NCBI GenBank assembly: GCA_965228735.1
Contig: OZ245838.1
Location: forward strand, 1,888,001-1,952,000
Source: Planctomycetota bacterium
GTDB lineage: Bacteria; Planctomycetota; UBA1135; UBA2386
DNA length: 64,000 nucleotides
Reading direction: 5' to 3'
In this document: in pieces, positions 1-62,724 of the stretch
Numbering within the stretch: the first letter of the stretch is position 1
Layout: every line of letters starts with the position of its first letter
The notes under the pieces: model-generated
Seen by the model: the letters and a program-made list of their open reading frames with translations, nothing else
What the model was told of the DNA's origin: nothing
Database searches by the model: none
Program-made: the position numbers and the translations under genes

Positions 1-655
1 ACTGGCCGCCGCCGTCCTTGGTGGTGACCGAGTAGTCGGCCTGCAGGGTCTTCTGACCCTGGAACTGCATGTCCAGCCCGGCCTTGCTGCCCTCGGGGTA
101 GATCAGGTGGACGGAGCTCGGGCCCCAGCCGATCACCCACATCGAGCGCCACTGCGGCGAACCGCTCGCGGGGCCGACGATGATGTTCGAGCCGTTGGGC
201 GCGTTCTTGTCGTCGAACCGCGGCAGCAGCCCGGTGAACTGCGCGTCGTCGGTGTCCTCGTTGCCGCGGAAGATCGTGCCGGCGATCTCGATCCCGAACG
301 CGTGCATCTTGTCCGCGTTCTGGACCAGCATGAACTGCGCCGGATCCTTGGCCTTGTCGACGAGCTTCTTGTCGGCCTGGAAGTAGTCCGTGAGCTCGCC
401 GCAACCGTCACGCACCTGCGTGGTGCTGCCGGTCGACGGCTGCACGCCGCCGTAGAGCTTGCGCCACGTCGGCTGCGAGTAGCCGGTCCGAAGGTTCGTC
501 AGGTTGGTCGAACCATCGTTCGCCTCGAGCATCACCGCCTCTTCGAGGACGTCGTTCTCCTCGGCGATGATCTCCATGACCCGACCGATCTTGCCGTCGG
601 GTCCCTCCAGTGCCTTGAGGTCCGAAAGGGTCGGCCTCGTGTTGGAAAGTGCCAT
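1..655 (-). CDS. Major capsid protein (Bbp17-like), 3' end outside window
   Basis: Not in ORF track. Manual translation from ATG at 655 (GGAGGGG RBS): MALSNTRPTLSDL...EANDGSTNLTNLRTGYSQPTWRKLYGGVQPS...FTGLLPRF...WGPSSVHLIYPEGSKAGL, typical of BPP-1-like capsids; directly follows the scaffold. Confidence 0.88.
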   Translation of the reverse strand, partial: MALSNTRPTLSDLKALEGPDGKIGRVMEIIAEENDVLEEAVMLEANDGSTNLTNLRTGYSQPTWRKLYGGVQPSTGSTTQVRDGCGELTDYFQADKKLVDKAKDPAQFMLVQNADKMHAFGIEIAGTIFRGNEDTDDAQFTGLLPRFDDKNAPNGSNIIVGPASGSPQWRSMWVIGWGPSSVHLIYPEGSKAGLDMQFQGQKTLQADYSVTTKDGGGQ

Positions 656-678: not shown

Positions 679-1371
679 CTATTTCTTGCCTACGTCACCA
701 AACAGGATGTCGGCGGTGCGGCGTTCCCCGCCCGCTCCGCCGGCGCCGACGACCAACGAGTCGTCTTCGCTGACCAGGTCTCCGGCCTTCGCGAGTGCCT
801 TCAGCACCTGCAGGTTGCTGCCGAGTCCCGTGGTCTTGAGCAGACCGGACAGCTCTCCGCTCGGATCGAGCGCCTTCAGGGCGCGGCCGACCTTGCCGAG
901 GTTGCTCTTGAGGTTGTCGCCTCCGAACTCCGGGTCGTTCCGGGTCTCGTTGAGCATCTCGTCGTGCTGCTTGCGCATCGCCTCGAGCTGCTGCTCGGCG
1001 ACCTGCTGCTGCACCACGGGCGCCATGGTGTCGATCACCATCTGCGCGTTGTCCTGCGTCAGGTTGAGCTTGCGCGCGACCTGCTCGGAGAAGTGCTCGA
1101 GCACCTGACCGCCGAGCTCGCTGCCGTCGGGGGCAGTCAGCTCGTAGGTCTCGGGTGCACCGGGCGCCGCCTCTCCGTCGCCGTCTTGCGTCTGCTCACC
1201 GGCCTCGGGCGGCTGTTCGCCGCCTTCCTGGCCGCCTTCGGCAGGTTGCTGTCCCTGCTCGCCTGACTGCTCTCCCGATCCCTCCGAGGAATCGAGCAGC
1301 GTGGCCAGGCCGTTGTCCGTGCCACCGTCGCTGTTTGGTGTTTCGGTCGGGTTTGGCTGCGGCTCACTCAT
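679..1371 (-). CDS. Capsid scaffolding protein (Bbp18-like)
   Basis: Acidic disordered N-terminus, APETYEL, DPEFGGDNL..N, TGLGSN, C-terminal TADILFG; immediately upstream of the capsid gene. Confidence 0.82.
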   Translation of the reverse strand: MSEPQPNPTETPNSDGGTDNGLATLLDSSEGSGEQSGEQGQQPAEGGQEGGEQPPEAGEQTQDGDGEAAPGAPETYELTAPDGSELGGQVLEHFSEQVARKLNLTQDNAQMVIDTMAPVVQQQVAEQQLEAMRKQHDEMLNETRNDPEFGGDNLKSNLGKVGRALKALDPSGELSGLLKTTGLGSNLQVLKALAKAGDLVSEDDSLVVGAGGAGGERRTADILFGDVGKK

Positions 1372-1676
1372 TCGTCTCGCTCCTTCAGCATCTCCGCGTA
1401 GAGCTCAATGCACGTCGTACGCGCGAGCCGTTCGATCCGTCGCCCCAGCTTCTGCTCTCCGAGCTGCATGTACGTCGTCAGGGCGTTGGAGCCGTAGGCG
1501 ACGTTGTCGAGATCGCTCTCGCTCAGAATCCAGGCGACGAACGCGCGGCCTTGCGGCGTGCTCATCTGCGAACGAAGCAGTTCGATGACCCGCTGTTGCT
1601 TCGCCTGCTCGCGCTTGGCCTTGTCGGCCTGCGCCAGCTGGCGTTCGTCGCGGTTCAACGGGCGTCGCTCGCTCAT
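1368..1676 (-). CDS. Bbp19-like small head-module protein
   Basis: MSTPQGRAFVAWIL...LGEQKLG pattern, 102 aa, position upstream of scaffold. Confidence 0.75.
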   Translation of the reverse strand: MSERRPLNRDERQLAQADKAKREQAKQQRVIELLRSQMSTPQGRAFVAWILSESDLDNVAYGSNALTTYMQLGEQKLGRRIERLARTTCIELYAEMLKERDE

Positions 1677-1743: not shown

Positions 1744-3480
1744 TTAGACGCCGATCCCCAGCCCGCTGGTCATCCGCGTCTGGCGCCGGCCACCCGGAGC
1801 CGGCCCGCCCCCACCCCCAACCGAGTACTCGAACGCGCCGGCATCCGGCGCCACCAGGTCTCGGATGTCGTGCCCGATCGCGTCGTAGTCGTCGAGCACC
1901 GGCACCGGCGTGCCATAGCCAATCGCAGGTGACGTCGCCTGCAGATTCCAGTCCGTTGCCGAAACGAACAGCGGATCGACGTCCTCGAGGTTGTTCGAAG
2001 CCGTGACCGGCGAGCCGCCAGAGACCGACGTCGACGTCGCGTTCGGGCAGTACAGCAGGTTGTTGCGCACGAGCACGCTGGTGTCGGATGCCGCGACGTG
2101 GATCATCCGCGTGTTCGCCAGCACCTCCGTCGTGTGCAGCGTGTTGTGGTAGAACACCACGTCGCGGGGGTTCGGCGTGCCCGCGCCAATCTGATCGACG
2201 CGCACCCACTGGATCTCCAGCAGGTTCGTCGAGTCGTTCACGATGAACCGGTTGTTCCGGATCGTGCAGCCGTCATTGTTGACTTGGATCGGCGTCGGGT
2301 AGGCGTTGTCGCGGTGCAGCACCTCGAGGTCGTTCCGCTCGACGATGACATCCTCGACGCGGTTGTCTTGACCCGACGAAGCCGAGCCGAACGCCATGCA
2401 CCAGGCCGTGCGGTGCGTGAAGTAGTTACCCTGGATCACGTAGTGCCGCGACGTCGTGGTCGCGTCGACGTGCGACTTGCTGTGCAGCTTGATCGACAGC
2501 TTGTCGGCCTGCGCGTTCGCGAGGTTGCAGCCGGACACCACAACACGCTCGCCGAACGGGAAGCGCAGCAGGTGCTCGGTCGTGATATCTGCGAAGTTGC
2601 AGTTCAGGATCGCGCCGTCGCGAGCCGAGAAGTAGGCGCCGTACTGCGTGCCGCCAGGGTGATCGCAGTTCGCAATGCAAACGCCGTGGCAGATGTCGAC
2701 GGCGAAGAAGTCCGGCGTCTCATGGCCGAAGCCGTAGCACTGCGAGAACTCGCTCGCGCGGATGTGCGAGAACAGCAGATCATCGCCACGGTAGCTGAGG
2801 TTGAACAGCTTTCCGGGCGTGCCGCCGTTGATGTAGTCGAACTCGACGTCCACGAACCGGAGGTCGTCGCATTCGATGGTGCTGCCGCCGTTGCCGATCT
2901 GGACGACCGAATCGTCGGTCTGCACCTGCACGATCGGGTTGTTGTCGAAGATCCCGCGGACGTCGGGGTTGGTGCCCGTTCCGAAGGCGCCGATCGACAC
3001 CGGGGCTCCAGTGCCAGCACAGGTCACGCCGCTCGTCTGCAGGAAGCTATCGCCGCGCTTCATCAACAGCCGCCTGTCCGTGGCGTAGTAGCTCATCACG
3101 GTGTTGAAGCTCGACGTCGTGACCTGCGTCGCTCCGGCCGGAGCTCCGGTGAAGTCCGCGGTATTCGAGAAGCAGATCGTCTTCGTCCCCGCGAACACCA
3201 CGTCGGGGTCGGTCACCGTAATCACGACGTTCTGGGTCACGAACGAGCCGTCCGGCTCGGCGACGAGCAGCCGCACGGTGTAGGTGCCCGGCGTGCGGTA
3301 CACGTGCGCGGCGACCGCGCTGCTCGCGTGCCGCAGGTTATCGTCCATGTCCCAGTCGAACGTCAGCTCGTGGAACGGCCGCGTGGTCACCGTGCTCGTC
3401 GTGCCCGTGGCGTTGAAGTGGACGCTCAGCGGAGCGACGCCGGTGACCCGGCTCGTCGCCAAGGACACGGTGATCGCCAT
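1744..3480 (-). CDS. PKD domain plus right-handed beta-helix protein; candidate head-spike fibre
   Basis: PKD motifs (GVAPLSVHF, AHVYRTPGTYTVRL), beta-helix repeats, SPAIGYG...PDAGAFEY, then a Gly linker and terminal GLGIGV; no signal peptide; follows the spike-base gene. Confidence 0.75.
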   Translation of the reverse strand: MAITVSLATSRVTGVAPLSVHFNATGTTSTVTTRPFHELTFDWDMDDNLRHASSAVAAHVYRTPGTYTVRLLVAEPDGSFVTQNVVITVTDPDVVFAGTKTICFSNTADFTGAPAGATQVTTSSFNTVMSYYATDRRLLMKRGDSFLQTSGVTCAGTGAPVSIGAFGTGTNPDVRGIFDNNPIVQVQTDDSVVQIGNGGSTIECDDLRFVDVEFDYINGGTPGKLFNLSYRGDDLLFSHIRASEFSQCYGFGHETPDFFAVDICHGVCIANCDHPGGTQYGAYFSARDGAILNCNFADITTEHLLRFPFGERVVVSGCNLANAQADKLSIKLHSKSHVDATTTSRHYVIQGNYFTHRTAWCMAFGSASSGQDNRVEDVIVERNDLEVLHRDNAYPTPIQVNNDGCTIRNNRFIVNDSTNLLEIQWVRVDQIGAGTPNPRDVVFYHNTLHTTEVLANTRMIHVAASDTSVLVRNNLLYCPNATSTSVSGGSPVTASNNLEDVDPLFVSATDWNLQATSPAIGYGTPVPVLDDYDAIGHDIRDLVAPDAGAFEYSVGGGGGPAPGGRRQTRMTSGLGIGV

Positions 3481-3492: not shown

Positions 3493-3765
3493 TCAGTAGC
3501 CGACCGCGAAGTCGGAAGCCGTCGTGTTCGTCTGCATGATCCGCTTCGGACGGAACGGCAGAACTGTGCCGTCAGGGACATTCAGGAATGGCACGATCTC
3601 GTCGTCAAACGACATCAGGTAGACGTTGCCTCCGGTGCCGACGTAGACGCACTCCGGAGTCGGAACGAGGTCGGCACTGTCGCTGACGCCCACCGCTGCA
3701 AAGGCCGACGACGTGCCGCCCCGACCACGACCGGGATACCCCGGGTCACTCGTTGGAGCCCCCAT
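3493..3765 (-). CDS. Head-spike base protein, RcGTA Rcc01079-like
   Basis: 90 aa, SDSADL...VYVGTGGNV...FLNVPDGTVLPFRPKRIMQTNTTA matches the family pattern. Confidence 0.8.
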   Translation of the reverse strand: MGAPTSDPGYPGRGRGGTSSAFAAVGVSDSADLVPTPECVYVGTGGNVYLMSFDDEIVPFLNVPDGTVLPFRPKRIMQTNTTASDFAVGY

Positions 3766-4751: not shown

Positions 4752-6455
4752 TCAGACCCCCGCAGCCGAGAGAGCTCCCAGCGCTTCGTTCGCCGCGTTC
4801 GCATCGCCACCCGTCGGCACACCGGCCAGGTCCCGCATCGTCTTCGCCTGCACCGCACCAGCCTCGATCTGCGCCTGCGCCGCCTGCGCGTCGGCGCGCG
4901 CCTTGCGCACCACCGCGACCTGCTGCCCGCCGTGCACATGCTCGGGATCGACCCCCATCCGATCCGCCACGCGATCGGCGATCGAATCGGCGTTCACCTT
5001 GTCGGTGACGTCCCTGCGGAAGTCCGCCAGGATCCCGACCGTGCCGAGCCACCGCTCGGTCGAGCGCGTCTCGTAGGCCTGCTGCGCCTGCGCCAGCAGC
5101 GAAACGAACTCGATGTTCAGCTCGTGCCCGACTAGGTCCGGCGGCGGCGGCGGGATCTCGCCAGCCTCGGCCAACCGCAGGAACGCGTTGTCGACGAGCG
5201 GCTCGAGCAGCTCGTTGTGCGTCCGCTGCAGCATCGGGCCGAGCATCAGCATCTTCTCTTCCTGCAGCTGGCTGACCTCGAACTTCGTCCGCTCCTGGTT
5301 CGTGGTGTTGGCCAGCAGCAGGAACATGTCGACGTTCATCGCGCGGTTGATCCGCTGCTGCACGTCGAGAAGGTCCGCCCGCAGTTCCCCGAACGGGATG
5401 TTCGGCTCGAACAGCGGCTTGATGCCGCCGTTGGGGTGCGGCGTGTCGACCGGGTTCCAGCCGCCCGGCAGCGAGTCGATCTCGTGACCGTCGACGCGGG
5501 TCGGCCCCTGCAGCGACGGATCGAGGTAGAGGTCGATCGCGTTGCCCTTCTGCAGCTGCTCGTGATTGAGCTGCCGCATGTCGCCGAGCGCCTGCATGCC
5601 GGGCCCGTAGCCGTAGATGTCGCCGCCGTAGGTCCACCACCTCGGTACCACCGCGGGGAACTCGCGGAAGCCGCCGACCTTCAGCAGCCCGTCAGTCCCG
5701 TCGTTGCCGTTGAGCTCGAAGTAGACCGACTCGAACGCCATGTCCTCGCGGTGCGGGCTGGCCTTGTCGCGCTTCATGCGCGGTTCGATGGCGTGGCAGA
5801 CCGGGACCCACTCGTCGTAGTGCTGCCGGTTCCACTTCTCCTTCGTCCCCTGCGAGCAGTTCTCGAGCCCGAACTGCTCGACCAGCGCGTGCACCGGCAT
5901 CTCGAACTCGCGGTAGATCGTGTTGATCAGGCCGTCCCAAGACGCCCCGACCGAATACTCGCCGATCGTCAGAGGGTGCAGGTGGATCAGGTTCTTCGGG
6001 TGCGGAACGATGATCCCGGCCCCGGTCCCGAACGCGCCCTCCTCCTGGAAGATGTTGTGCAGGCCGTGGTAGACGTTGCTCTTCTGGAACAGCCGCAGGA
6101 TCCGCTCGGTGACCGCGTACAGCCACTTCTTGACCGGCCGGAACTTGTTCAGGCTCGGGTCCGCGGTCGCCATGCGGATCCACGGCATCGTGCTCGGGGC
6201 CGCGCCTGCCATGAGGCCTGCGGTCTGCACCTGCAGCGACCAGTGCGGCGTGCTGTCGTAGATCGCGTGATCGCGGCGGTGGCCCTTGTTGCGGTCCTGA
6301 ATGAAGAACCGGCCCGCGCGCGGCAGCAGAACCTCGCTGATGTCCTTCCAGTGCGGATCCCAGGTGCTGCGCTCGTTCTTGAGCACGTCCAGGCGCTTCC
6401 GCTTCTGCTTCCGGTCCGGCAGGTTGCGCGCGCGGTATCCCTCGACGTCCACCAT
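4752..6455 (-). CDS. Portal / head-to-tail connector (Bbp21, T7 gp8-like)
   Basis: 567 aa; IYDST, GAFGTG, PRW...YGYGPG..ALGD, LGPML.R...ELL.PL, IEFVSLLAQAQ. Confidence 0.93.
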   Translation of the reverse strand: MVDVEGYRARNLPDRKQKRKRLDVLKNERSTWDPHWKDISEVLLPRAGRFFIQDRNKGHRRDHAIYDSTPHWSLQVQTAGLMAGAAPSTMPWIRMATADPSLNKFRPVKKWLYAVTERILRLFQKSNVYHGLHNIFQEEGAFGTGAGIIVPHPKNLIHLHPLTIGEYSVGASWDGLINTIYREFEMPVHALVEQFGLENCSQGTKEKWNRQHYDEWVPVCHAIEPRMKRDKASPHREDMAFESVYFELNGNDGTDGLLKVGGFREFPAVVPRWWTYGGDIYGYGPGMQALGDMRQLNHEQLQKGNAIDLYLDPSLQGPTRVDGHEIDSLPGGWNPVDTPHPNGGIKPLFEPNIPFGELRADLLDVQQRINRAMNVDMFLLLANTTNQERTKFEVSQLQEEKMLMLGPMLQRTHNELLEPLVDNAFLRLAEAGEIPPPPPDLVGHELNIEFVSLLAQAQQAYETRSTERWLGTVGILADFRRDVTDKVNADSIADRVADRMGVDPEHVHGGQQVAVVRKARADAQAAQAQIEAGAVQAKTMRDLAGVPTGGDANAANEALGALSAAGV

Positions 6456-8059: not shown

Positions 8060-9631
8060 TCACTTGTCCCTCCGATACGGGTCCCGCACCTGCTTCTTGC
8101 GCTGGCTCCGCTTCTTCGCGAACTCCCGCCGCTTCGGCGTGTGCATCAGCGCCAGGAAGTAGGCGCTCGCCTTGTCCGGAGAATACCCGAGCTTGTCGAC
8201 CACCTCCTCCCGCGACGCCACCTTGATCTCCCGCCGCGGCTGCGACCACGTGTATGCGCACAGCTCCGCCAGCAGCTGGCGATCCGGCGGCAGGCAGATC
8301 CCGGTGTTACTCACCGGGTCCAACGCCTCCCGCATGCGCCAGACCAGCTCCGATCGGAGGTTGAACAGCGGCTGCGCGCCATTCTCGGTCACACCCATCG
8401 CCGGGTCGCCGACGTTGACGCCGATCACGTGCTGGTCCATCGCCATGAGGTGGCCGTACGGCTGCGCCCCGACCCCGAACAGGTCGAGGTGGATCACCGC
8501 CTCGTCACGCTTCGCCGCCACGATGTATCCGGCGATCGTCGGCCCGTTCGGGCAGTCCTTGCCCTCGTAGACGATCGGCTCGTCGAACCAGTAGCCGTGC
8601 CGCCGCGCAATCACCGTGCGGTCGTCGCCGCCCATGGCGACGTCAACGCCGAGGCTCTCCATCGGCGGCAGCCGTTCCGGACGGGACCACCGCTCCATCG
8701 CGGCCTCGACCCATGCTGTGGGAATCACCTGGAAAGCGTCGTCCTTCAGTCCCGCGTCGAAGTCCCCGTAGAGCAGCTGCGAGCGCCGCGGCTCGGGCTG
8801 GCTCTGGATCTGGCTCACGTAGTCCGTGGCCATGTAGAACGGGTTGTCGGTCACGCGCGCCGGGATGAACGTGCGTGACTTCGGTCGGATGATCTGCTCC
8901 GGCGTGAATTCCTCGGGGTCGAAGTCGTAGACCGGCTTCTCATCGACGACCACGAACGGGCGGTCGTCCGGCAGCTCTCGGTCCTTCTTCGCGATCGTTG
9001 TGAACCACCGGAGCTCGCCAGGCACCGCCGGGTTCGGGTGCTTGCGGTCAAGCCATGGGGCGAAGAACCGGATCACCCACTGGCCCTCCACCGTCATCGG
9101 CGGGTTGAACGTCATCATGACGCGCGAGCGCTGATCGGGGTTGCTGGTGCGGTTCCAGCCCATGATGAACCGCACCTGGTCCTCCCGCATCTCGGTGACC
9201 TCGTCGAAGGCCTTCAGGTCGTGCGGCCGGCCGGCCCAACGCCGCTCGTCGCCCTTGTTGTCGAGGCCGCCGAACTCGATCAGGCGGCGCTCGACCATCC
9301 ACTTCGACTTCTGACTGCTGTAGCCGCGCGTGTCACCGAGCAGCTCCGTCATTCGCTGCACGATACCCTCGGTCTGCGCCTTCTCGCGCCGGATGATCAG
9401 CGTGCGTTCGTGCTCGGTCAGCGCGAGGCCCGCGACCAGGTCGGTCTTGCCGCCGCCGGCGGCGCCGCCGTATCCGACGATGTCAGCCTCGCTCTCGAAT
9501 GCCTGCAGCTGGGGGCCCGGAAGCGGCCGCCAGATTCGGCCGTCGTCGAGCAGGCCCTCGAGCTTCTCGCGCTCCTCGGGAGTCATGTACGCGAGGAGCG
9601 ACGGGTCGTACTCAAAGGCGTCAGTCGCCAT
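8060..9631 (-). CDS. terL: Terminase large subunit (prophage)
   Basis: Walker A YGGAAGGGKT, Walker B AFDEVTE, MTFNPP, nuclease LGVDVAMGGDD, SPDKA. Confidence 0.93.
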   Translation of the reverse strand: MATDAFEYDPSLLAYMTPEEREKLEGLLDDGRIWRPLPGPQLQAFESEADIVGYGGAAGGGKTDLVAGLALTEHERTLIIRREKAQTEGIVQRMTELLGDTRGYSSQKSKWMVERRLIEFGGLDNKGDERRWAGRPHDLKAFDEVTEMREDQVRFIMGWNRTSNPDQRSRVMMTFNPPMTVEGQWVIRFFAPWLDRKHPNPAVPGELRWFTTIAKKDRELPDDRPFVVVDEKPVYDFDPEEFTPEQIIRPKSRTFIPARVTDNPFYMATDYVSQIQSQPEPRRSQLLYGDFDAGLKDDAFQVIPTAWVEAAMERWSRPERLPPMESLGVDVAMGGDDRTVIARRHGYWFDEPIVYEGKDCPNGPTIAGYIVAAKRDEAVIHLDLFGVGAQPYGHLMAMDQHVIGVNVGDPAMGVTENGAQPLFNLRSELVWRMREALDPVSNTGICLPPDRQLLAELCAYTWSQPRREIKVASREEVVDKLGYSPDKASAYFLALMHTPKRREFAKKRSQRKKQVRDPYRRDK

Positions 9632-17644: not shown

Positions 17645-17897
17645 CAGCGCGCCCCCTCGAGGTCCGCGACCTCACCCCCGAGCGCGACGATCAGCTCCGC
17701 CTCGCTCAGCCCGACCGGCAACCGGCCGCGGCGGACCCCTCCCAGTCCCACCTGACCACGGCGTGCGATGTTGTCCACAGCCGTTCGCCCGCGCTCGCCG
17801 CGCGAACGGATTTCGTAAGCACCCGTCTGAGTCCCGAGGCCTTCCTCGGTACTATCTACGTCGCGGCTACGCCCCGACTTCGCATATGGCGAGGTGC

Positions 17898-17927
17898 GGG
17901 TTCGATTCCCGCCGCCTCCACCATTCT
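17898..17927 (+). repeat. att core copy 1 (tmRNA/ssrA-type 3' end)
   Basis: GGGTTCGATTCCCGCCGCCTCCACCATTCT: T-arm, Ala-type acceptor strand and CCA; exact 30-bp repeat at 34080-34109. Confidence 0.9.
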
Positions 17928-28514: not shown

Positions 28515-28516
28515 TC

Positions 28517-33724: not shown

Positions 33725-33725
33725 T

Positions 33726-33932
33726 TCACGGCCTGCGCGGATCGTAGAGCCGGGCAGCCTGCTCGTCGGCCGCCTTGACCCCGTCGGCGCCGCACTTCCG
33801 CATCCACGCCTCGTAGGCGGAGACGGCGTCGTGCATGAGCGGGTTCTCCTCGTCGGGCACCCGGTCAACGCCGATGCGGCGGGTCAGCTCGTCGAACGCC
33901 TCGATGTGCTCGGGACCGGTGTCGTTGGTCAT
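33726..33932 (-). CDS. Small hypothetical protein
   Basis: 68 aa, abuts the downstream gene. Confidence 0.45.
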   Translation of the reverse strand: MTNDTGPEHIEAFDELTRRIGVDRVPDEENPLMHDAVSAYEAWMRKCGADGVKAADEQAARLYDPRRP

Positions 33933-34079
33933 GCCCAAGGATTGTCGCGACGGCGCGATCGATCGCCACTCGGGGCCGCGATCTGGTCGGGGCGTCGATT
34001 TGGTCGACTATCTGGTCGGCTTTCGATCACCCGGTGTCGTAACGTCAAGCGCGCACGCGGCGTGCGGCAAGTCTGACCA

Positions 34080-34109
34080 GGGTTCGATTCCCGCCGCCTC
34101 CACCATTCT
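34080..34109 (+). repeat. att core copy 2 (attR of satellite)
   Basis: Exact repeat of 17898-17927. Confidence 0.9.
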
Positions 34110-34282: not shown

Positions 34283-35645
34283 GGGAGTGTGCGATGAACG
34301 GTGTATTCGCGTGACGGCTGGTGGGATCCTTTGACCCGTAGGGAGCCCACCGATGACCCCGAAGAAGAATGACCGCCACCGAATCCCGGACGAGCTGATC
34401 GACCAGCTCCTCGCCAACTACGAGAAGCCAGAAGACCTGACAGGAAAGGACGGCATCCTCAAGGAGCTGACGGCCCGGCTGCTCGGCCGAGCCCTCGAAG
34501 GCGAGATGACCGAGCACCTCGGCTACGAGAAGCACGCACCGCGTGCCGAGGGCACGAGCAACGCGCGCAACGGATCACGCAGCAAGACGATCAAGGTCGA
34601 GGACGGCGAGCTCGAGATCGAGGTGCCGCGCGATCGCGACAGCACGTTCGAGCCCGAGATCGTCAAGAAGCGCCAGAGACGCTTCGCGGGCTTCGACGAG
34701 AAGATCCTGGCGCTCTACGCCCGCGGCATGACCGTCCGCGACATCCAGGCCACCTGGAGGAGCTGTACGGCGTCGAGGTCTCGCCATCGCTGATCTCGAG
34801 CGCCACGTCGGCGGTCCACGAAGGCGTCCTGGCCTGGCAGAGCCGGCCGCTCGAGCCGGTCTACCCGATCGTCTTCCTCGATGCGCTCGTCGTGAAGGTG
34901 CGCGACGAAAGCGTCGTCCGAAACAAGTCGGTTTACCTGGCGATCGGCGTCACGCTCGACGGCCGCCGCGAAGTCCTCGGGATCTGGATCGAGCAGACGG
35001 AGGGCGCGAAGTTCTGGCTGAAGGTCATGAACGAGCTGAAGACGCGCGGCGTCCAGGACATCCTGATTGCGTGCTGCGATGGCCTGAAGGGCTTCCCGGA
35101 CGCGATCGAGCACGTGTTCCCGCAGGCCACCGTGCAGACCTGCATCGTGCACATGATCCGGAACTCGCTGCGCTTCGTCAGCTACAAGGATCGCAAGGCC
35201 GTCGCCAAGGACCTCAAGCCGATCTACACGGCCGCCAACCGCGAAGCGGCCGAGGCAGCGCTGGATGCCTTCGACAAGAAGTGGGGCCGCCGCTACGAGA
35301 TGATCACCTCGTCCTGGCGAGCGAACTGGGAGCGTGTCGTGCCGTTCCTCGACTTCCCGCCCGAGGTCCGGCGCGTGATCTACACGACCAACCAGATCGA
35401 GGCGCTCAACTCGAGCCTGCGCAAGCTGCTGCAGTACCGCGGCCACTTCCCGGACGACAAGTCCGTCACCAAGCTGCTCTACCTCGCGCTGCGTCGCTTC
35501 GAGAAGAAGTGGACGCGTGCGCTCTGGAATTGGAGCGCCGTCCTCGGGCAGCTCGCTATCTTCTTTCAAGGCAGGATACCTGCCCTGTAACCGTGACCTC
35601 ACTCCGCCAGCTGGTCGCCGTTTACACCGTTAGCTGCACACTCCC
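34283..35645 (+). mobile_element. IS256-family insertion sequence
   Basis: Imperfect terminal IRs GGGAGTGTGC-N4-AACGGTGTA; 8-bp target duplication GCCATCTG (34275-34282, 35646-35653). Confidence 0.92.
34353..35590 (+). pseudogene. IS256 transposase with 1-bp frameshift near 34750
   Basis: RNG, VPRDR..FEP, YARGM..RDI in the first frame; DGLKG, CIVH..RN, YTTN.IE in the second; DIQA-HLEE broken by a missing C. Confidence 0.88.
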
Positions 35646-36765: not shown

Positions 36766-37752
36766 ATGCAGAGGGCTAGCGGCGCAAGCGACCTGATCCA
36801 AGTCCTACGCGGAGACTGCCGCGAATGGATGCGGGCGCAGCGTGCCGGCTCGATCCGCTGCATAATCACGTCGCCGCCCTACAACCTCGGTATCGACTAC
36901 GGGTCTTACGAGGACAGTCAGCCGCGCCGGGACTACCTGAAGTGGCTCGATCAGATCTTCGGCGACATCGCGAGGGTGATGCACCGCGAGGGGCACTTCT
37001 TCCTCAACCTCGGCTACAGCAACACCGACCCCTGGGTCGACTTCGAGGTCGCAGCCGTCGCCCGCAAGCACTTCGTGCTGCAGAACCGGATCACCTGGGT
37101 AAAGAGCATCTCGATCGGCGACGAGACCTACGGGCACTTTAAGCCGATCAACTCCCCGCGCTTCGCCAACGTGACCAATGAATTGATCTTCCACTTCACG
37201 AAGTCGGGGAACGTCCCGGTCAACCGCCGAGCCATCGGGGTCCCTTACAAGTGGAAGTGCAACCTCGACAAGCGAGGTCGGATTCGTGGACGCCTCGCCA
37301 AGGCCCACGGGTTTCGGAACTGGCGAGAGTTCGACGCAAGCGCTTCCGACGCGCAGCGTAAGGAACTTCAAGACGAACTCGAAGCCCGCGTCCAGCGGGT
37401 CGGCGACATCGAAGACAAGCGATGCCGGGGCAACACCTGGTTCGTCCCCTACGACACGATCCGTGACCGCGAGTTGGACAGGGGCTCACATCCGGCCACC
37501 TTCCCAGTCGCCCTCCCCGAGATGTGCATCCGCTTCGCCGACTGCAAGAAGGGCACACTCGTCTACGACCCGTTCGCAGGAAGCGGAACGACACTCATCG
37601 CAGCACGGGATCTGGGCATGAGAGGAGTCGGAACCGACATCGATGAGCGCTACGTGTCCTACGCTCTCGACCGCCTCAAGCAGACCCAACAGGACAGGAT
37701 CCGCAGCCGAGGCGCCCACACGAACGGGGCGCATCAGCTCTCCGGCGAGTAG
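36766..37752 (+). CDS. DNA methyltransferase, N4-C/N6-A beta class
   Basis: ITSPPYN precedes HPATFP and DPFAGSGTT. Confidence 0.9.
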   Translation: MQRASGASDLIQVLRGDCREWMRAQRAGSIRCIITSPPYNLGIDYGSYEDSQPRRDYLKWLDQIFGDIARVMHREGHFFLNLGYSNTDPWVDFEVAAVARKHFVLQNRITWVKSISIGDETYGHFKPINSPRFANVTNELIFHFTKSGNVPVNRRAIGVPYKWKCNLDKRGRIRGRLAKAHGFRNWREFDASASDAQRKELQDELEARVQRVGDIEDKRCRGNTWFVPYDTIRDRELDRGSHPATFPVALPEMCIRFADCKKGTLVYDPFAGSGTTLIAARDLGMRGVGTDIDERYVSYALDRLKQTQQDRIRSRGAHTNGAHQLSGE

Positions 37753-49039: not shown

Positions 49040-49126
49040 GACCCGATGATCGCAAGTCCCGAGCGTTCCGCAAGGGGCGCGGCGGTCACCGCACTGGGCG
49101 AGGGAGCAACGAGTGTGGAATCGCGT

Positions 49127-52591: not shown

Positions 52592-55306
52592 TCAACGAAG
52601 CGTCCGCGCCGGCCGCAGCCCCAGGTCGGCGATGTTCGTCCACTTGCTACGACGGTCGCGCTTCGCAACGCGCAAGTCCTGGGGTCGCGTCAGGTACGCA
52701 CCGCCACGAAGCTGCCGAAAGCCGGGATGGCCACCACTGTGCCGACCGTCCCCTGCGGCGTGCGGCACGGAGTACCCGACCGGGGTATCGAGGCACCATT
52801 CGCCGACGTTGCCGAGCATGTCGTGCAGTCCGAACGCGTTCGGGCGATAGCTGCCGACCGGGGCGACGTGCACGACGCCGTCGTCGAGAGCCCACGCCAC
52901 CGGGTTGGAGGCCGCGGTCGACGGCTCGTGCTGCATGTAGACCCGGTCGTAGCAGTTCACGGCGCCGGCCAGCGACGCGGGGTCGTCGCCCCACGGGTGA
53001 ATGGTGCTCGAGCCGGCTCGGGCCGCGTACTCCCACTGCGCTTCGGTCGGCAGCGTCAGTCCGAGCGCGCGGGTGACCTCGTCGCAGCCGACCCAATGCA
53101 CCGTTTCGACCGGATCGCGCGGCCCGAAATCGTTGAAGTCGTCGTGCGTGCCGCGCAACTGCCCGGCTCGGCGGCCCGTGAAGAACCGCCACTGCGCCTT
53201 CGTCATCTCGAACTTGGAGAGCAGGAACGGGTCGAGTTCGACCTCGTGAACGGGCCGCTCGATCGAAACGGACCCCGGATCGACGTTCGCCGATCCGGGC
53301 GGGTGACCCGCGTCCGGCAGCCGCGCTCCCATCCAAAACCGACCACCCGGCAACAGCACGAAGACGAGGCCCACGTCGTCGGTCAGGACCAACTCGCCGT
53401 CGTCGTCCCGTTCCGCAATTCGTCCCGTCTGCGGATGCCCGAACTCGTGGTATCCGGTCCGCGGATCGCGACCGAGCGGGACGAGCCCGATCTGCGGGGC
53501 GATCGCCAGGCCACCGTACCACGGACTGGTCTCGAGGTTCGCGATGTCCGCGACCACCTGCGACCAGAGCTCCGCGTGCTCGTCGATCGTGATGCGCGCC
53601 AGCCGCGGCACGATCTCCAACCACCGCGCCACCGTGTGGAGTGATCCCGACTCGGGATCCGAGAACTCGTCGCAGAGCGCGAGCACCCGAGTCAGGCTCT
53701 CGTGCTCCCATTCGTCCGCCGGGTCGGCGAAGCGCCATGGCTGCCCCACTTCGGCATCGATCTCGGCCAGCCGTCGTTCGAGCGCGGCGATCTCCTGCCG
53801 CTGCGCCGCCGTGGGAGTCGCCCCGAGTTCGGACCGCCGATGGTCCAGCCGGTGGCCGAGCTCGCGGCGTTCGTCCCAGGTCGGATGGCGCCGGCGATGC
53901 CGCTCGATGTCGGCCGCGACGTTGACGAGCGCCCGCCGGCGAACGGCTGCGAGCGCGCGGGCGTGCAGCGGCCGCCGCGCGACAGCCGCGCGCCCCTTCG
54001 CGAGCCAGACGCGCAGTGTGTCGGCGTCCGAAACGCGCGCCGCCGGGAGGTGGGCGAATTCGTTCTGCAGTTGCTCGATCAAGCGCCCATCGGCCAGTCG
54101 CCGGAGATCGCCCACGGTCTCGTCGAGCGCCCGGTTCTGCCGCAGCGTCGCCACGAACGCCACCACCACGGTGATGAACAACGCCGCCCCGAGTCCGGCC
54201 GGCAGCGGGTTGCGGCGCACGAACTTGCGGAGCCTGACCCACGCCGATGCCGGCCGCGCGACGATCGGACGATCGGCGAGCACGCGCCGCACTTCCGCCG
54301 CGAGTTCGGGCACCGAGTGGTAGCGGCGGCTCGGATCCTTGTCGATCGCCGTGGCAAGGACGACCGCGAGATCACCACCGAGGCGGCGATCGCGGCGTCC
54401 CAGCGGCACCGGCTCGGTCTCGACGATCGTGCGGGCCGCGGTCGCGACGTCGCGCCCGTGGACCTCGAACGGCAACTGGCCCGTGAGCAACTCGTAAGCG
54501 ATGACCCCGAGCGACCAGACGTCACTGCCGACAGTCACCTCGTCGCGACGCCCCTACACCTGCTCGGGGCTCATGTAGGCGAGCGTTCCGACCATGCGGC
54601 CGGCGTCGGTCAATCTCGTGCCATTGGCGCCGTCGCCGTCGATCGCACGCGCCACGCCGAAGTCGAGCACCTTGGGCTCGCCCGCAGCGGTGACCAGGAT
54701 GTTGTCCGGCTTGAGGTCCCGATGGAGCACACCTTTGTGATGGGCATGAGCGACGGCGTCGCAGATCGCAACGAACAGCTCGAGACGTTCGCGTCGCCCG
54801 ATCCGACGTTCGTCCACGTACTCGTCGAGCGGCTGCCCCTCGACGTACTCCATGGCGAAGAACGGCGCCACCCCGTCGCCGTCGCGATACGTTCCGGATC
54901 CGAAGACCTGCGTGATGCCCGGGTGCTGCAGGCTCGCGAGCGCCTCGACCTCGTACTCGAAGCGCCGCGCCAGCCCGGGCACCGTTCCGGCCCGCATGAC
55001 CTTCAGCGCGACGCGGCGGTTGGGTTGATCCTGGATCGCCTCGTAGACCACCCCCATCCCGCCGGCGCCGATGCGGCGCACGATCGTGTACTCGGCGATC
55101 CGCCCCGGCACCGCATTGCACTCGATCGCCATCGGCGTCGCCCCGATCACGTCGACCTCGGCATGGGCCAACAAGGATCGCACTTCGGCGAGCAACTCCG
55201 CGTCCGCGCCGCAACGTTGCTCGACCCAGGCCGCTCGCGCCGCGCGGTCGACGTCGAGCGCGGCGCTGACGACGTCCCAGGCCGTTCGGAACCGGCGGGC
55301 ATCCAT
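52592..55306 (-). pseudogene. Ser/Thr kinase-TM-FGE/SUMF1 domain protein interrupted by in-frame TAG
   Basis: GAGGMG, VALK, HRDLKPDN, DFG, YMSPEQV*GRRDEVTVGSDVWSLG; C-terminal LPTEAQWEYAARAG, DMLGNVGEW. Confidence 0.85.
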
Positions 55307-55310
55307 GCCG

Positions 55311-55883
55311 CTACTCCGCCTCGTCGGGTCGGAGCTCGCGCGCGAGCCAACCGCGCGCGATCGCGAGGTCCTTGTCGATCGTTCGTCGCGACACACCGAC
55401 GACCAGCGCGATCTCCTCACCCGTCATGTTCGCAAACACGTGCATCTCGAGAACGCGAGCCGGCCGCGGGTGCAGCCCGGCCAGCTGCTCGAGCAGGTCA
55501 TCGACGGCCAGAACGTCGAACGCGCGGTCGGGCACGGCCACGTCGCCGACCGTGATCGCGGCGCGCGGACCACCGCGCTTCTGCGCGTTGCGGCGGCGGG
55601 CATGATCCACGAGGATCTGACGCATCAGCCGAGCCGCCACGGCGGCGAACTTCGCCTTGTTCTCGAAGCCGCGCGCTTCGGCTCCGGCGAGCCGCACGTA
55701 GGCCTCGTTGACGAGCGCCGTCGGCTGGATCGACTGGGCGCGCTGCTCCCGCTCCAACAGCCGCGCCGCGAGATCGCGCAGCTCGTCGTAGACCAGGGGA
55801 ACGAGCTCCTCGGCCGCGCCGTCCTCGCCCGCGACCAGCAGATCGAGCAATCGATGCGTTCTGGCGTGTGGGGAATCGGACAT
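55311..55883 (-). CDS. ECF sigma factor, Ser/Thr-kinase-associated type
   Basis: LVPLVYDELR.LA, IQPTALVNEAY.RL, MRQILVDHARRR.AQKRGG; 4 nt upstream of the kinase. Confidence 0.9.
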   Translation of the reverse strand: MSDSPHARTHRLLDLLVAGEDGAAEELVPLVYDELRDLAARLLEREQRAQSIQPTALVNEAYVRLAGAEARGFENKAKFAAVAARLMRQILVDHARRRNAQKRGGPRAAITVGDVAVPDRAFDVLAVDDLLEQLAGLHPRPARVLEMHVFANMTGEEIALVVGVSRRTIDKDLAIARGWLARELRPDEAE

Positions 55884-58200: not shown

Positions 58201-59910
58201 TCAGCGCTGCCGTCGACCGCGGCGAGACTCGAAGGCACCCGCGTCCGGACGCGCCCCCCTTCGTTCGCCGTCCATGTCGTCGGCCACCGGGGCGGGCTTG
58301 CCATGATCGATCGCCGGCGAGCCCGGTCGCGGGCGCCAGTCCGTCGGTGAGGTGAATCGCGGGTCGACGCCGACGAGGTTTCCCGACTCGTCGTAGAGCG
58401 CGGCGTTGCCGTGCGCGATGACCGCGTTGTCGACGTTCGGGGCCCACATGAGGCAGTTGCGGATGGGAACCGGGTCACCCTCGTGCGCGGCGACGCTGCC
58501 CAGCCGGAAGTTGCCAACCGACTCGTTCATCGTGTGCGCGGTGCAGTGATAGATCGCACAACCGGCGGGCACCTGGCCCTCTCCGCGCTTCTGGATCTGC
58601 ACCCCATAGCGACTTCGCCGATCCGTTGCGTCGACGCCGAACGTGCAATTGCGCACGGTCATCTGCCGCCCCCATAGCATGATCGCCGTAGCAGTCCGGT
58701 CTCGCAGCGTGAACCGGCAGCGCTCCACGATGACGTCCCGGACCCGTTCATCGCGAGAGGGACTCGCGGTACCGAAGCCGCATCCCCAATCGCTCGTGAC
58801 CTCGATCCGGCAATCGCGGACCACGATCTCTCGACTGACGTCATCCGGATCGCCACCGAACGGTCGCGAGTGGGCCTTGATCACGTGCTTCTTCGCGCCG
58901 GAGCCAGCGAGCTCGCACCCGGACACCACGAGGCGCTCGGAATACGGGAAGCGCAGGACGTGCTGCTTCATCGGCTCCCGGCTCACGATGCGGCAATCGA
59001 GCCATGCGCCGCCGCGCGCGCTGAAGTAGCAACCGTACTCCCAGCTGTCCACGAACTCACAGTTCGCCACCGTTGCGTTGGAGTGCGTATCGACATCGAA
59101 GTAGTCCGGCACGCTGTCGCCCCACGACACCGCGGTCTCGAATCCGGTCCCGCGACAACGGTAGAGCAACACGTCCTCGATGCGGTAGCCGACCCCGAAC
59201 AGGTCGCCCGGCGTCTCGGCCGACGAGCGGAACGTGATGTCCGTCACCCGCAGATCCCTGCACTCCACCCGCCTGCCGCTGCCGAAGACCAGCAGCGCCC
59301 CGCCGTGGTTTGCCACGACGACCGGGTTGTTGTCGCAAAGACCACGGCCGTCCGCACGCGTGCCGACCCCGAACGCCCCCAGGATCCACGGTCCCGAGCC
59401 ACCCGAGACGGATGCCCGAGACGTTGCGGTGAAGGTGTCGCCCCGCGCCAGGAGGACGCGCTTGCCCGCCTCGAGGTGCGCGATCACCGTGTCGAAGGAC
59501 GACGTCGTTACGCGTTTCGCGCGGGCCGGTGCGCCCTGGAAGTCCTTGTCGTTCGAGCAGACGACCGTGTCCTTCCCCGCGAACACCTCGTTCGGGTCGG
59601 CAACGGTGATCCGCGTCGTTGCTGAAGAACTCCCGCCGCCTGGTCTGGTGACGGTCAACGACACCGTGTAGCGGCCCGGAAGATCGAAGACGTGCGCCGC
59701 GACGGGACCGGACGAGTCGCCGCCGTCGCCCCACTGCCACGCATAGTGCAGGTCGTGGAACGGGCGCTGCACGCCGTCGGCCGTCGTCCCGATCGCATGG
59801 AAGTGGACGGCCAGCGGCGCGACACCCGACGTTCGGCTGGCGGTCAACGAAACCGTCTGCGCTCCAACCGTGACGGCGAAGCAGAACAACGCCAGGGCAG
59901 CGCGCACCAT
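58201..59910 (-). CDS. Secreted PKD plus beta-helix protein, paralog of prophage 1744-3480
   Basis: Signal MVRAALALFCFAVTVGAQ; colinear conserved blocks with the phage protein along the full length. Confidence 0.85.
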   Translation of the reverse strand: MVRAALALFCFAVTVGAQTVSLTASRTSGVAPLAVHFHAIGTTADGVQRPFHDLHYAWQWGDGGDSSGPVAAHVFDLPGRYTVSLTVTRPGGGSSSATTRITVADPNEVFAGKDTVVCSNDKDFQGAPARAKRVTTSSFDTVIAHLEAGKRVLLARGDTFTATSRASVSGGSGPWILGAFGVGTRADGRGLCDNNPVVVANHGGALLVFGSGRRVECRDLRVTDITFRSSAETPGDLFGVGYRIEDVLLYRCRGTGFETAVSWGDSVPDYFDVDTHSNATVANCEFVDSWEYGCYFSARGGAWLDCRIVSREPMKQHVLRFPYSERLVVSGCELAGSGAKKHVIKAHSRPFGGDPDDVSREIVVRDCRIEVTSDWGCGFGTASPSRDERVRDVIVERCRFTLRDRTATAIMLWGRQMTVRNCTFGVDATDRRSRYGVQIQKRGEGQVPAGCAIYHCTAHTMNESVGNFRLGSVAAHEGDPVPIRNCLMWAPNVDNAVIAHGNAALYDESGNLVGVDPRFTSPTDWRPRPGSPAIDHGKPAPVADDMDGERRGARPDAGAFESRRGRRQR

Positions 59911-59989: not shown

Positions 59990-61288
59990 TCAGCGATCCG
60001 CATCACGCGACCGCCGATACCCGGCGAGCGTCGTCTCCAGATGCGCATGCAGCGGCGCCCGCCGTGCCTTGTCGATCTGCACGCCGCGCGGCAACCGGCC
60101 GCGGGTCAGCCCCTGATGCAGCCGCCGCAGCACGCGCGCGCGCAGTGGCTCGGGCAGGGCCGCGAACGCCCGCGAGTGCACCATCGGCGAGAGTGGATAC
60201 TCGAACGTGCGGTCCCCGAGGTCGAGCCGGCCGAGGCGCATGCCGTCGGCGCCTGCGGGCCACAGCGACTCGAATGCGCGCGCGAACGTCGGGTCCGACG
60301 CCGCGCCGAGCCCCGCGAGCGTCATCTCACCGCCGAGGAACAGATCCCGCGTGATGTCGTGGGCCAGCGTTTCGAGGATCTCGGCGGTCCGTTCGCGCAG
60401 ACCGGTCGTGCCGTCGACCGCGTTCATCGCCCGATCGTCCGCGAGCAGACAGCGCACCTGCAGGCTGGCGCGGATCATCCGGTTGTGCACCGTCACCTGC
60501 TGTTCGAGCGCGAGCAGCGCGCCGATGTCGCTCGTCGCGGCGAGGTAGTCCGCGGCCTCGAACTCGGAGAACGCCCGCAGGTCGTTCGCCGGCGCGCTAT
60601 CGACGCGCCAACGCCCGTCCTCGTCGCGCGCGGCGATGCCGTTGCCACGGTGCGCGCCGTCGAACCGGCCGGTGACGAGCCAGCCGCCCCACCGGTGTTC
60701 GTGCGGCGTGCGAATCGTCACGCTGTCCTCGCCCGCGCTCGCGATCGGGTTGCCGTCCTCGTCGGGAAACACCGACCGCAACAGCAACCCGGGCTCGTCG
60801 TGCGTTCGTGATCCGGCGTGACAACGCAGACACGAGTCGTTGCGGCGCAGCACGGCCGGCTCGTGCGGGGCCTGCGGCAGTTCGTAGAACACGAGCCCGA
60901 GTCGGGCGTCGCTCGCCGCGATCTCGAGATTGTGCGCCCCCGGCGACCACGCGACGTAGACGTCGGGGCCGAAGTAGAGCGCGCGCGGCGACGCGGGCGA
61001 GATGCGATGGCGTTGCAGGCTGGTCTTGCTGAAGACCAGGACCTGGCTCGACTCCGGCACGGCGAGCTCGCGGAGCAGCGCCCGCAGTCGACCGCTCGCC
61101 CCCGCGGCCTCGAGCTGGACGTCCCCGCTCTCGATCCGGCGGTTGAGCGCGGTGATCGCGTTGTCGTCCGCGGCCCGGCGATAGCCGACGGCGCGGCGCG
61201 TGTGGAAGGCCTGCGTCAGCACCGCGTCCGCCGACACGAGGCAGGCCCCGATCATCAGGGCGAGGAGCCGGTTGGGTGGCGGAGGCAC
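59990..61288 (-). CDS. Exported c-type cytochrome-like protein
   Basis: Signal peptide, single CLRCH, SQVLVFSKTSLQ, RWGGW.VTG. Confidence 0.7.
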   Translation of the reverse strand: MPPPPNRLLALMIGACLVSADAVLTQAFHTRRAVGYRRAADDNAITALNRRIESGDVQLEAAGASGRLRALLRELAVPESSQVLVFSKTSLQRHRISPASPRALYFGPDVYVAWSPGAHNLEIAASDARLGLVFYELPQAPHEPAVLRRNDSCLRCHAGSRTHDEPGLLLRSVFPDEDGNPIASAGEDSVTIRTPHEHRWGGWLVTGRFDGAHRGNGIAARDEDGRWRVDSAPANDLRAFSEFEAADYLAATSDIGALLALEQQVTVHNRMIRASLQVRCLLADDRAMNAVDGTTGLRERTAEILETLAHDITRDLFLGGEMTLAGLGAASDPTFARAFESLWPAGADGMRLGRLDLGDRTFEYPLSPMVHSRAFAALPEPLRARVLRRLHQGLTRGRLPRGVQIDKARRAPLHAHLETTLAGYRRSRDADR

Positions 61289-61342
61289 GATGATTTCAAT
61301 CTACCCGGACCCTGCCGGCGGCGCATCCGGAGCGCGACGGCG

Positions 61343-62371
61343 TCACGCGCCAGCCACGGCCTGGCCGCTCCCGGCCGAGTCCGCCTGATCCGACATGCCG
61401 CCCATGGGGTCGTTCGAGTCCGTTCCCGGGGTGATCTGGCCCGGGGTGATCTGGCCCGGGGTGATCTGGCCCGGGGTGATCTGGCCCGGGGTGATCTGGC
61501 CGAGCGTGATTCGGCTCGCGGCGATCTCCCGGAACGCCGGCAGCAGCTCCGCCAGGCGCTCGGGGTTCGCCGCGACGAACAACCTGGCATAGTGGCGACC
61601 GGCACGTTCCTGGCTCGCGTCGAGCCCGGCGCTTTCGAGCACGTCGACGATGCCGCGCTGCTCCTCCTGGTCGAAGAACCGCCGCTGTGGCAGCAACACG
61701 TCGTCGACCTCACGCGTCACCAGCCCGAAGCGCTGGAGACAGCTCGCGATCGGTGCGGGGTCGAAGACCCGGAGCACCGTGAAGAGGAACACCGCGTCGC
61801 GCGCACCGTCGCCGAGTTGCCGCAGGAGCACGTCGATCGTGCGCTCCGTCACGTAGCCGATCGCACCGGTCGCCAGCAGCAGATTGACGGGCCGGACCCA
61901 CTCGGCATCGTCGGGCGCCAGTGCCGCGCCATCCCCTTCGAGGTCCGCGACGATGCCTCGATCGAGCAACCCGACGCGCTGCGCGAACCGAACGGCCGGG
62001 GTCGAGACATCGAGCCCGATGCACTCCATGTCCACCGCGAGACGGGCCGCAGCCAGGCCGGCGCGCGTCGCCTCGACTGCCGCCTCCGGTTCTCTCGGCC
62101 CGTGAATGGCGAAGTAGCGCGCGAGTTCGGCGAACGACAGACCGTGCCGCACGGCCGCGGAGTTGATGCCGTAGCTGCAGCCGATGTCGAGCATGCGAAC
62201 GCGGGCATCCCAGCGCCGCAGCAGGCCCGCGGCAGCCACAACGAACGGGCGCGCCTCGTCGCAGATGCTGTAGTCGAGCTTCACGAGCTCGCCAAAGTAA
62301 CCGTGTGGCGTGGGCTGCGTGTAGATGTCGTCGAACGAGGCCTTCGCGTCGTTGGCGGGATCGGTGTTCAT
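61343..62371 (-). CDS. Class I SAM-dependent methyltransferase-like protein
   Basis: LDIGCSYGINSA, GLDVS, TGAIGY. Confidence 0.75.
   Translation of the reverse strand: MNTDPANDAKASFDDIYTQPTPHGYFGELVKLDYSICDEARPFVVAAAGLLRRWDARVRMLDIGCSYGINSAAVRHGLSFAELARYFAIHGPREPEAAVEATRAGLAAARLAVDMECIGLDVSTPAVRFAQRVGLLDRGIVADLEGDGAALAPDDAEWVRPVNLLLATGAIGYVTERTIDVLLRQLGDGARDAVFLFTVLRVFDPAPIASCLQRFGLVTREVDDVLLPQRRFFDQEEQRGIVDVLESAGLDASQERAGRHYARLFVAANPERLAELLPAFREIAASRITLGQITPGQITPGQITPGQITPGQITPGTDSNDPMGGMSDQADSAGSGQAVAGA
61426..61515. repeat. 15-bp tandem repeat (encodes GQITP)
   Basis: CCGGGGTGATCTGGC, five perfect copies plus one degenerate. Confidence 0.95.
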
Positions 62372-62724
62372 CGGGTCGCGCAAGGGTCGGAGGAACGAAC
62401 TCTGGAGAGCGGCGAACTAGAGAACGCCATCGTGACGCAACACGCCGAGCAGTGCCGACGGACATCGCCAACCGCAACGCTCACGCATCGCGGCGACCGG
62501 CCGACGCGCTCGCGCGCCGGCATTCTCGTCGTCAGCCGCAACGCCTCGCAGCTCCACCCCGAAACTCGCCCTGGGCGATCGGGGAAGCCGCACGTCGCGC
62601 GAAAAAGTCTCTCGGCTCCCAGCATCGCACATGACATCCGCATTGCAAGAACTGCTCGTTCCCGTCGCGCCGTGGTAACGTCGAGCTCATCGGCACGCAG
62701 ATCGTGGCGCGTCGATTCGCGCTC

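Follow-up and report, generated by a model that had tools for sequence, protein, structure and literature searches.

Two members of one protein family are encoded near opposite ends of the window, the whole stretch of 64,000 nucleotides of Planctomycetota DNA that was analysed: a chromosomal protein with a PKD domain, a right-handed beta-helix and a choice-of-anchor Q domain (P0001), and a prophage protein that is likely a head-spike fibre (P0002) (Table 1). An earlier note on this DNA had described the two as full-length paralogs, and this was borne out by a colinear end-to-end alignment with 232 identities in 557 positions (42%, E = 1e-125), in which every colinear block listed in that note is present. 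The best DNA block reached 67.5% over 351 nt, and this low similarity indicates that the split is old. A whole-genome search added a third full-length copy, P0003, at G000:C1:4614611-4616920, 2.7 Mb away, with 39% identity to P0001 and 42% to P0002 (tblastn), so that a single genome holds three copies of one family, mutually 39-44% identical. P0003 is a predicted lipoprotein with two He_PIG domains ahead of the common core, and it lies beside an exopolysaccharide (EPS) locus. The two-copy picture of the earlier note stood for the pair; the third copy and the link with the EPS locus were not covered by it.

Table 1. Coordinates of the features discussed (positions of the window)
Feature	Position	Strand	Remarks
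P0001, chromosomal PKD + right-handed beta-helix + choice-of-anchor Q protein	58201..59910	-	569 aa; alternative start 59922; likely secreted
Predicted type I signal peptide of P0001	59860..59910	-	17 aa, V-G-A/Q; by eye and hydropathy
PKD domain of P0001 (residues 20-103)	59602..59853	-	PF18911 E 1.2e-11; PF00801 E 4e-10
Choice-of-anchor Q domain of P0001 (residues 527-562)	58225..58332	-	NF041518, 27.6 bits, cut-off 25
P0002, prophage copy, likely head-spike fibre	1744..3480	-	578 aa; without signal peptide
C-terminal anchor-like motif M-T-S-G-L-G-I-G-V of P0002	1747..1773	-	on disordered Gly-rich linker
P0236, 90-aa head-spike base homolog (Rcc01079-like)	3493..3765	-	6tb9 Rcc01079 E 7.5e-6; phrog_12296 E 4e-11
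Major capsid protein	1..655	-	phrog_212; runs off the window
Scaffold / protease	679..1371	-	phrog_458
Small conserved head-region gene downstream of fibre gene	1368..1676	-	phrog_528
Podophage portal / head-tail connector	4752..6455	-	phrog_332 E 1e-139
Terminase large subunit	8060..9631	-	phrog_979, phrog_2
Right boundary of 44-kb prophage, 28-bp copy of tmRNA 3' end	17896..17923	+	prophage start G000:C1:1861728
Right boundary of second, 16-kb tandem element, 26-bp copy of tmRNA 3' end	34080..34105	+	bounds element at 17924-34105

The prophage and the chromosomal surroundings

The prophage was assigned a terminase, portal, scaffold/protease, major capsid protein, podophage tail proteins and internal virion proteins by PHROGs, and it presumably resembles the BPP-1-type podophages. 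No PHROG match was obtained for P0002, the gene of which sits in the head-gene block, between the portal and the scaffold/capsid genes. The same prophage stretch was found, identical, in four runs from four studies, two of which may be the source of the present DNA; this points to a clonal lysogen and is uninformative on excision or display. The tail genes upstream of the window include, at L002:15290-18556 (-), a fusion protein whose last 200 aa form the tail tubular protein (phrog_394). The roughly 880 aa ahead of them open with a G-Q-S-N motif, which is presumed to be esterase-like, and the fused protein is possibly a second EPS-modifying virion enzyme. A large protein comparable to it was found at L042:16959-20375, and the tail protein at L002:12033-15887 (-) (phrog_376) holds inserted domains (phrog_7765, 4711 and 9370) in common with the phrog_394 fusion. 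Between the two right-hand boundaries lies a tandem 16-kb element at the tmRNA site (17924-34105), with two integrases, a primase/helicase and its own terminase large subunit on the + strand, that looks like a satellite or defective phage. Just outside its att repeat, an IS256-like transposase, broken into two pieces, and a gene resembling a DNA methyltransferase were recognized by reading (34353-35590 and 36766-37752).

The gene for P0001 is chromosomal, since 24 kb separate it from the last att repeat of the two tmRNA-integrated elements. Its codon usage falls in the 19th percentile, that of P0003 in the 5th and that of P0002 in the 67th, and P0001 is not marked as foreign. Other genes of this region were also noted. 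Two tandem proteins of about 950 aa (46175-51931) show low codon adaptation (3rd-4th percentile) and gave no NCBIfam match. A gene for a Ser/Thr kinase with a formylglycine-enzyme-like part (52592-55420, -) lies downstream of an ECF sigma factor (TIGR02999) and is split over two frames near 54540-54560, by a frameshift or as a pseudogene. In a 346-aa ORF (61343-62383), six units of ITLGQ/ITPGQ close to the C-terminus stem from a short tandem repeat at 61255-61450 (-).

Domains, predicted fold and the proposed head-spike assignment

The ends of the two proteins differ as the earlier note had described, with a signal peptide and no tail in P0001 and the reverse in P0002. The N-terminus of P0001 is hydrophobic (hydropathy peak of 2.6) and ends in V-G-A/Q, which by eye resembles a type I signal peptide, and the protein is without a terminal tail motif. 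P0002 begins directly at its PKD domain and ends in M570-T-S-G-L-G-I-G-V578. The PKD domain was found in all copies with Pfam, Beta_helix (PF13229) scored above the cut-off in P0003 and just below it in P0001, and the choice-of-anchor Q profile NF041518 (cut-off of 25 bits) was passed by P0001 and by the family member P0010 (26.5 bits), with P0002 (19.5 bits) and P0003 (21.1 bits) below. An AlphaFold2 model of P0002 from a 12-row alignment (pLDDT 86.8, pTM 0.89) is a right-handed parallel beta-helix, in which residues 551-578 are disordered (pLDDT < 50). The best solved Foldseek matches were GH136 lacto-N-biosidases, the pectate lyase Pel9A, GH28, GH110, PL6 and tailspikes, all of them distant (identity ≤ 13%, TM of about 0.3-0.4, E of 2e-7 to 1e-4). 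These matches mix lyases, hydrolases and epimerases, the fold neighbours being carbohydrate-active beta-helices; Atlas clusters matched PF13229/PF22842 at 0.96-0.97.

Over 346 distinct family rows, the most conserved residues were R306 (100%), H303 (94%), K331 (83%), H333 (76%) and W360 (75%), all five of which are retained in P0001, P0002 and P0003. The hallmark of the PL9 and PL6 families is a catalytic Lys or Arg together with Ca-binding acidic residues at family positions. By analogy with beta-helix enzymes in general, the five residues would line one groove acting on an acidic glycan. In P0001, seven rungs of the helix carry Cys where the ladder would have Asn (C306, 332, 367, 398, 422, 456 and 486), and Cys at two of the ladder positions is common to P0001 and P0002.

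The label of spike fibre that the earlier note had given to P0002 gained support from the gene immediately upstream, P0236, which stops 13 nt ahead of the P0002 start and matches Rcc01079, and from the anchor-like tail. In the gene transfer agent RcGTA, the head spike consists of a base pentamer and one fibre, the I-A-L-G-L-G-L-G-L segment of which fills five hydrophobic pockets (PMC7296036, available text). The RcGTA fibre is reported to bind capsulated cells (PMC10218006), and its spike genes adjoin capsule genes and are inferred to be of phage origin (PMC5026251), according to the accessible parts of both papers. Of the five hydrophobic positions in the RcGTA motif, four are matched by the tail of P0002 and all five by that of its sister P0004; the motif is C-terminal in these two proteins and N-terminal in P0010, P0134, P0017 and the protein of contig L042. 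Together, the base homolog and the anchor-like tail make it likely, as predicted from the genes, that P0002 is a capsid-vertex fibre with a C-terminal anchor. A complex predicted from P0002 residues 547-578 and four copies of the base scored 0.00 and speaks neither for nor against this, since the real base is a pentamer. A clade relative, P0005, gave no PDB sequence match under E 0.47 and has at its end a domain with a weak likeness to the spike base (13.2 bits, compared with a best of 8.1 in 500 shuffles), its C-terminus ranking first of 234.

The Rcc01079-like base gene (phrog_12296) was not detected in 26 virus records, 19 of which are less than 90% complete, and a weak phrog_12296 match in genome G094 was discarded as a different, unrelated protein. 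Small beta-rich ORFs occupy the spike-base position in three viral contigs (L052:9470-9757, L042:9585-9929 and L047:3004-3545) and are possibly other base families; none of them matched the base profile, and the one from L042 folded poorly (pLDDT 48) and had no Foldseek match. A second ORF with a GLGIG-like end (genome 1007079-1012340) proved to be a shadow frame opposite real genes.

Distribution, EPS loci and phylogeny of the family

The family is patchy, being present in 16 of the 339 genomes of the order and in neither of the two congeners, one of which (G059) has a match to the upstream neighbour of P0001 followed by another gene. Cellular copies are frequently located within or next to clusters with genes for GT2/GT4 glycosyltransferases, Wzx, Wza, a priming transferase and exosortase, and the association with Wzx/Wzy/Wza/exosortase clusters recurs in several genomes. 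When EPS marker classes were counted on the fetched stretch of each cellular locus, at least two were found in 10 of 23 loci, one in 2 and none in 11, and at least two in 8 of 21 once the two loci that supplied the markers were removed. Among the 11 marker-free loci are two with an identical protein, and several loci cover a short stretch. Among genome tiles taken as background, at least two classes were met in 1 of 360, a tile that adjoins P0003; the markers are type-specific, and an apparent second EPS-type cluster near 1.0 Mb (by reading) is uncounted. No EPS marker was found within 10 kb of P0001 itself. The GT2 of the EPS locus was found in 12 of the 16 family-positive genomes (one of these twelve having supplied the query), in neither congener, and in 40 of the 323 others, which thus carry it without the family; these co-occurrence counts overstate the association, as the genomes are kin and not independent. 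Judged from gene neighbourhood and co-occurrence, the cellular copies track one EPS locus type. P0003 and the EPS cluster are immediately preceded by genes for an acyl carrier protein-like protein, an acyl-CoA dehydrogenase, a DUF1839 protein and a GH2-like protein (G000:C1:4608191-4614113).

Relatives were gathered by two homolog searches, which matched 203 and 307 proteins, 120 of each being among the matches listed. Known copies at 42% identity escaped both word-indexed searches, so that the sampling is incomplete and closer relatives may be unsampled. Loci were collected from viral contigs (26), metagenomes (76) and named genomes (25), and single-protein scans of viral contigs gave nothing usable. 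The copy in genome G068, of the same family as the present one, is identical to a protein labelled as Planctomycetota. After removal of rows with a core shorter than 380 aa (9 of 154 and 16 of 262), 41 rows, namely the near clade and 12 outgroup rows, were analysed with IQ-TREE (LG+C20+F+G4). The tree, ((P0003,P0008,P0009),(P0001,clade A)), places P0001, nested among secreted cellular proteins, as the sister of the nine-member clade A that includes P0002 (support of 100/99 for P0001 with clade A and 100/98 for clade A). The sister of this whole group comprises 16 rows, most of them lipoproteins or secreted proteins, and includes a second signal-less set, clade B (P0017 and P0022); the topology was unchanged in a FastTree analysis of 369 rows. 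Grouping of the phage copy with distant taxa, which the earlier note had named as evidence against an exchange between host and phage, was not found: the nearest relatives are proteins of the host lineage, with P0001 as sister.

The closest relative of P0002 is another phage protein, P0004, with 56% identity. AU tests on 22 rows (IQ-TREE, LG+F+G4 and LG+C20) rejected the grouping of P0001 with P0002 (p = 9e-5 and 1e-3) and of P0001 with P0002 and P0004 (p = 0.0105 and 0.0078); also rejected under both models were P0003 with P0002 (p < 1e-5), clade A with clade B, and P0001 with the P0003 group (p = 0.002). In an earlier, faster run with a poorer free tree, P0001 with P0002 and P0004 was not rejected (p = 0.13). 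P0001 sits on a long branch (0.75), to which its Cys ladder may contribute, and has an unusual composition and no close cellular relative among those found, so that its exact placement calls for caution.

All nine members of clade A lack a signal peptide. Four were seen in phage DNA, namely P0002, P0004 (three IMG/VR contigs), the protein of L042 (located ahead of the portal on an IMG/VR contig) and P0007 (contig L065); the other five, as well as both rows of clade B, came without genomic context. The integrase of L065 is 55% identical over 397 aa to that of the present prophage, which suggests that these phages have a host lineage in common. A terminal GLG-type motif, the pattern for which was loosened after P0022 had been seen, was present in five of the nine members of clade A, in both of clade B, in a single one of the 17 remaining viral rows and in none of the 208 other rows. 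A hydrophobic N-terminal segment was found in none of the 11 rows of clades A and B, compared with 138 of the 208 other rows. The podophage L052 is related to the prophage (terminase 50%, portal 43% and capsid 39%). In L052 as in L047, the corresponding position behind the portal is taken by family members that branch elsewhere in the tree.

Proposed origin of the likely fibre and comparison with known systems

The exchange of genes between host lineage and phage that the earlier note had proposed, in the direction from host to phage, is supported by the tree. Of its further idea of phage capture of a host protein, capture from the host lineage stood, as an ancient event, and capture directly from P0001 did not, given the sister position of P0004 and the AU values for P0001 with P0002. 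The reading that is probably correct, on balance, is that the family binds or cuts the EPS of its own bacterium and that an ancestral phage of the host lineage captured a secreted member, which it shows on the capsid by means of a short tag. An EPS-associated, secreted beta-helix family would have existed in the host lineage, an Ig-like stalk would have been lost on the branch leading to P0001 and clade A, and one ancient capture into phages would have replaced the signal peptide by a capsid tag, with independent captures elsewhere in the family; that tagged versions arose more than once is the simplest account of their places in the tree. By analogy with RcGTA, five base subunits would cap each capsid vertex and grip one fibre by its alternating hydrophobic residues, P0002 being held, unlike the RcGTA fibre, from its C-terminus on a flexible linker. 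The groove of the helix would bind, and possibly cleave, an acidic EPS in a first reversible attachment. P0001 would then be a secreted, non-anchored EPS-remodelling enzyme descended from the donor branch, and P0003 the membrane-anchored form belonging to the EPS locus. The prophage and P0001 would lie within 55 kb of each other because the phage family infects hosts with this EPS type and this gene family, and not through recent copying of one gene from the other. A prophage in a host with the EPS locus and two cellular paralogs is as expected if the fibre recognises that EPS, in what is one case and carries no statistic.

Direct copying of P0001 or P0003 from this host by the present prophage or a recent ancestor would fit their occurrence in one genome and the full-length identity of 42%, but is very improbable, as the phage sister of P0002 is closer, there is little DNA similarity, and both pairings were rejected by the AU tests within the sampled rows. 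The opposite direction, in which P0001 is a domesticated phage fibre, returned by clade A or by a phage of an unsampled sister branch, that gained a signal peptide and lost its tag, has a small but real chance of being right. P0001 is sister to clade A and has its minimal architecture (no He_PIG domains and no lipobox), it lies outside the EPS locus and was not found in the two congeners, it shares two ladder Cys positions with P0002, and the fast AU run left nesting with P0002 and P0004 standing. Such nesting was, however, rejected in the fuller searches, P0001 has neither a tag remnant nor an adjoining base gene and is well outside the att repeats, and an additional transfer as well as the gain of a signal peptide would be required.

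The ligand and the place of the fibre could also be read differently. It is unlikely, if a little less so than the accounts that follow, that the family acts on outside glycans (e.g., algal polysaccharides) or other surfaces and that the fibre binds particles or biofilm matrix instead of a host receptor; the lack of a nearby EPS marker at P0001 and at 11 of the 23 cellular loci, the spread of the family over many phyla and its varied anchors would agree with this, whereas the copies in or beside EPS clusters in several genomes and the co-occurrence with one GT2 type argue against it. That P0002 acts off the capsid, as a soluble depolymerase released at lysis or an accessory gene expressed in the lysogen, is improbable: the small genes just upstream (3767-4748) were read as lysis-like, PHROGs gave no match, and P0007 follows similar small genes in L065 without a tag, but the adjacent Rcc01079 homolog, the anchor-like tail on its flexible linker, the head-gene block and the weak base-like fusion in P0005 all favour a capsid protein. 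Still less probable is a role of P0001 as a receptor-masking or receptor-destroying defence against phages with the paralogous fibre, which would suit a protein that is predicted to be secreted, retains the same groove residues and is closer to the fibre clade than any other known cellular protein. No result of the analysis supports such a role. The strain already carries a phage of this kind as a prophage, the EPS-locus members point to a housekeeping role, a common ligand is not assured at an identity of only 42%, and the simplest account does not require this function.

Within the preferred reading of ancient capture, it is suggested more tentatively, at somewhat less than even chances, that the Gly-hydrophobic nine-residue tag, at either end of the protein, is a plug that makes an enzyme of a host EPS locus into a capsid-vertex receptor-binding protein, in at least three captures (clade A, clade B and the L052/L047 group), and that the phage reads the EPS type whose cluster supplied the enzyme, so that the place of a fibre in the tree would predict the EPS type of the host. 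The origin of the glycan-recognising proteins of phages is usually argued on likeness of fold alone, whereas here the host and phage forms occur in one genome, can be aligned end to end and are joined by a tree with a direction, the signal peptide or lipid anchor being swapped for a capsid tag. If the mechanism is true, it would be a short route from bacterial EPS enzyme to phage adhesin that was taken repeatedly, of use in assigning hosts to phages of this uncultured, likely Planctomycetota lineage, and the family is a candidate for a new family of beta-helix enzymes. A literature search of openly readable main texts, on which supplements could bear, yielded no paper on the family or its capture. 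Three features appear to be new, namely the directional, sequence-level link from an EPS-locus family to capsid-tagged fibres, the placing of the anchor at the C-terminus, and the recurrence of capture; the spike architecture is already known from RcGTA and a host EPS enzyme with a tailspike fold from WceF, as far as the accessible texts describe them.

The likeness to solved enzymes is one of fold: the right-handed parallel beta-helix is common to PL9 (Pel9A, 1ru4), GH136 (LnbX, 5gqc), PL6 and P0002, and the predicted fold looks like that of the monomeric PL9 and GH136 enzymes, but identity is at most 13% and the family adds an N-terminal PKD and a C-terminal choice-of-anchor Q domain. With the tailspike depolymerases of HK620 and Det7, P0002 has in common the beta-helix fold and a presumed glycan target; it differs in its N-terminus, which is a PKD and not a tail-anchor domain, and in its place in a head-gene block with a head-spike base. 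A trimeric tailspike depolymerase was rejected as an identity for P0002, both the N-terminal tail anchor and the tail-gene position being absent. Pantoea stewartii secretes WceF, a host beta-helix enzyme whose fold resembles a tailspike and whose substrate is the EPS of the cell itself; WceF is a Tat-exported trimer with a structural similarity to phage proteins (PMC7949094, available text), whereas the host and phage copies described here are 42% identical over their full length, and a WceF-like placement in or beside a Wzx/Wzy EPS cluster is seen for P0003 and not for P0001. The closest counterpart is RcGTA (Rcc01079 and Rcc01080; PDB 6tb9), with which the prophage shares, as far as the accessible RcGTA text goes, a small base gene followed by a fibre gene, a homologous base and an anchor-like Gly-hydrophobic repeat. 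The repeat is N-terminal in RcGTA and C-terminal in P0002, and the cargo here, a PKD and beta-helix protein, is akin to proteins secreted by cells and is carried by a temperate podophage of a likely Planctomycetota host. In the available part of PMC5026251 the spike genes of RcGTA are considered phage-derived, and the transfer proposed here, from host to phage, would have run in the opposite direction.
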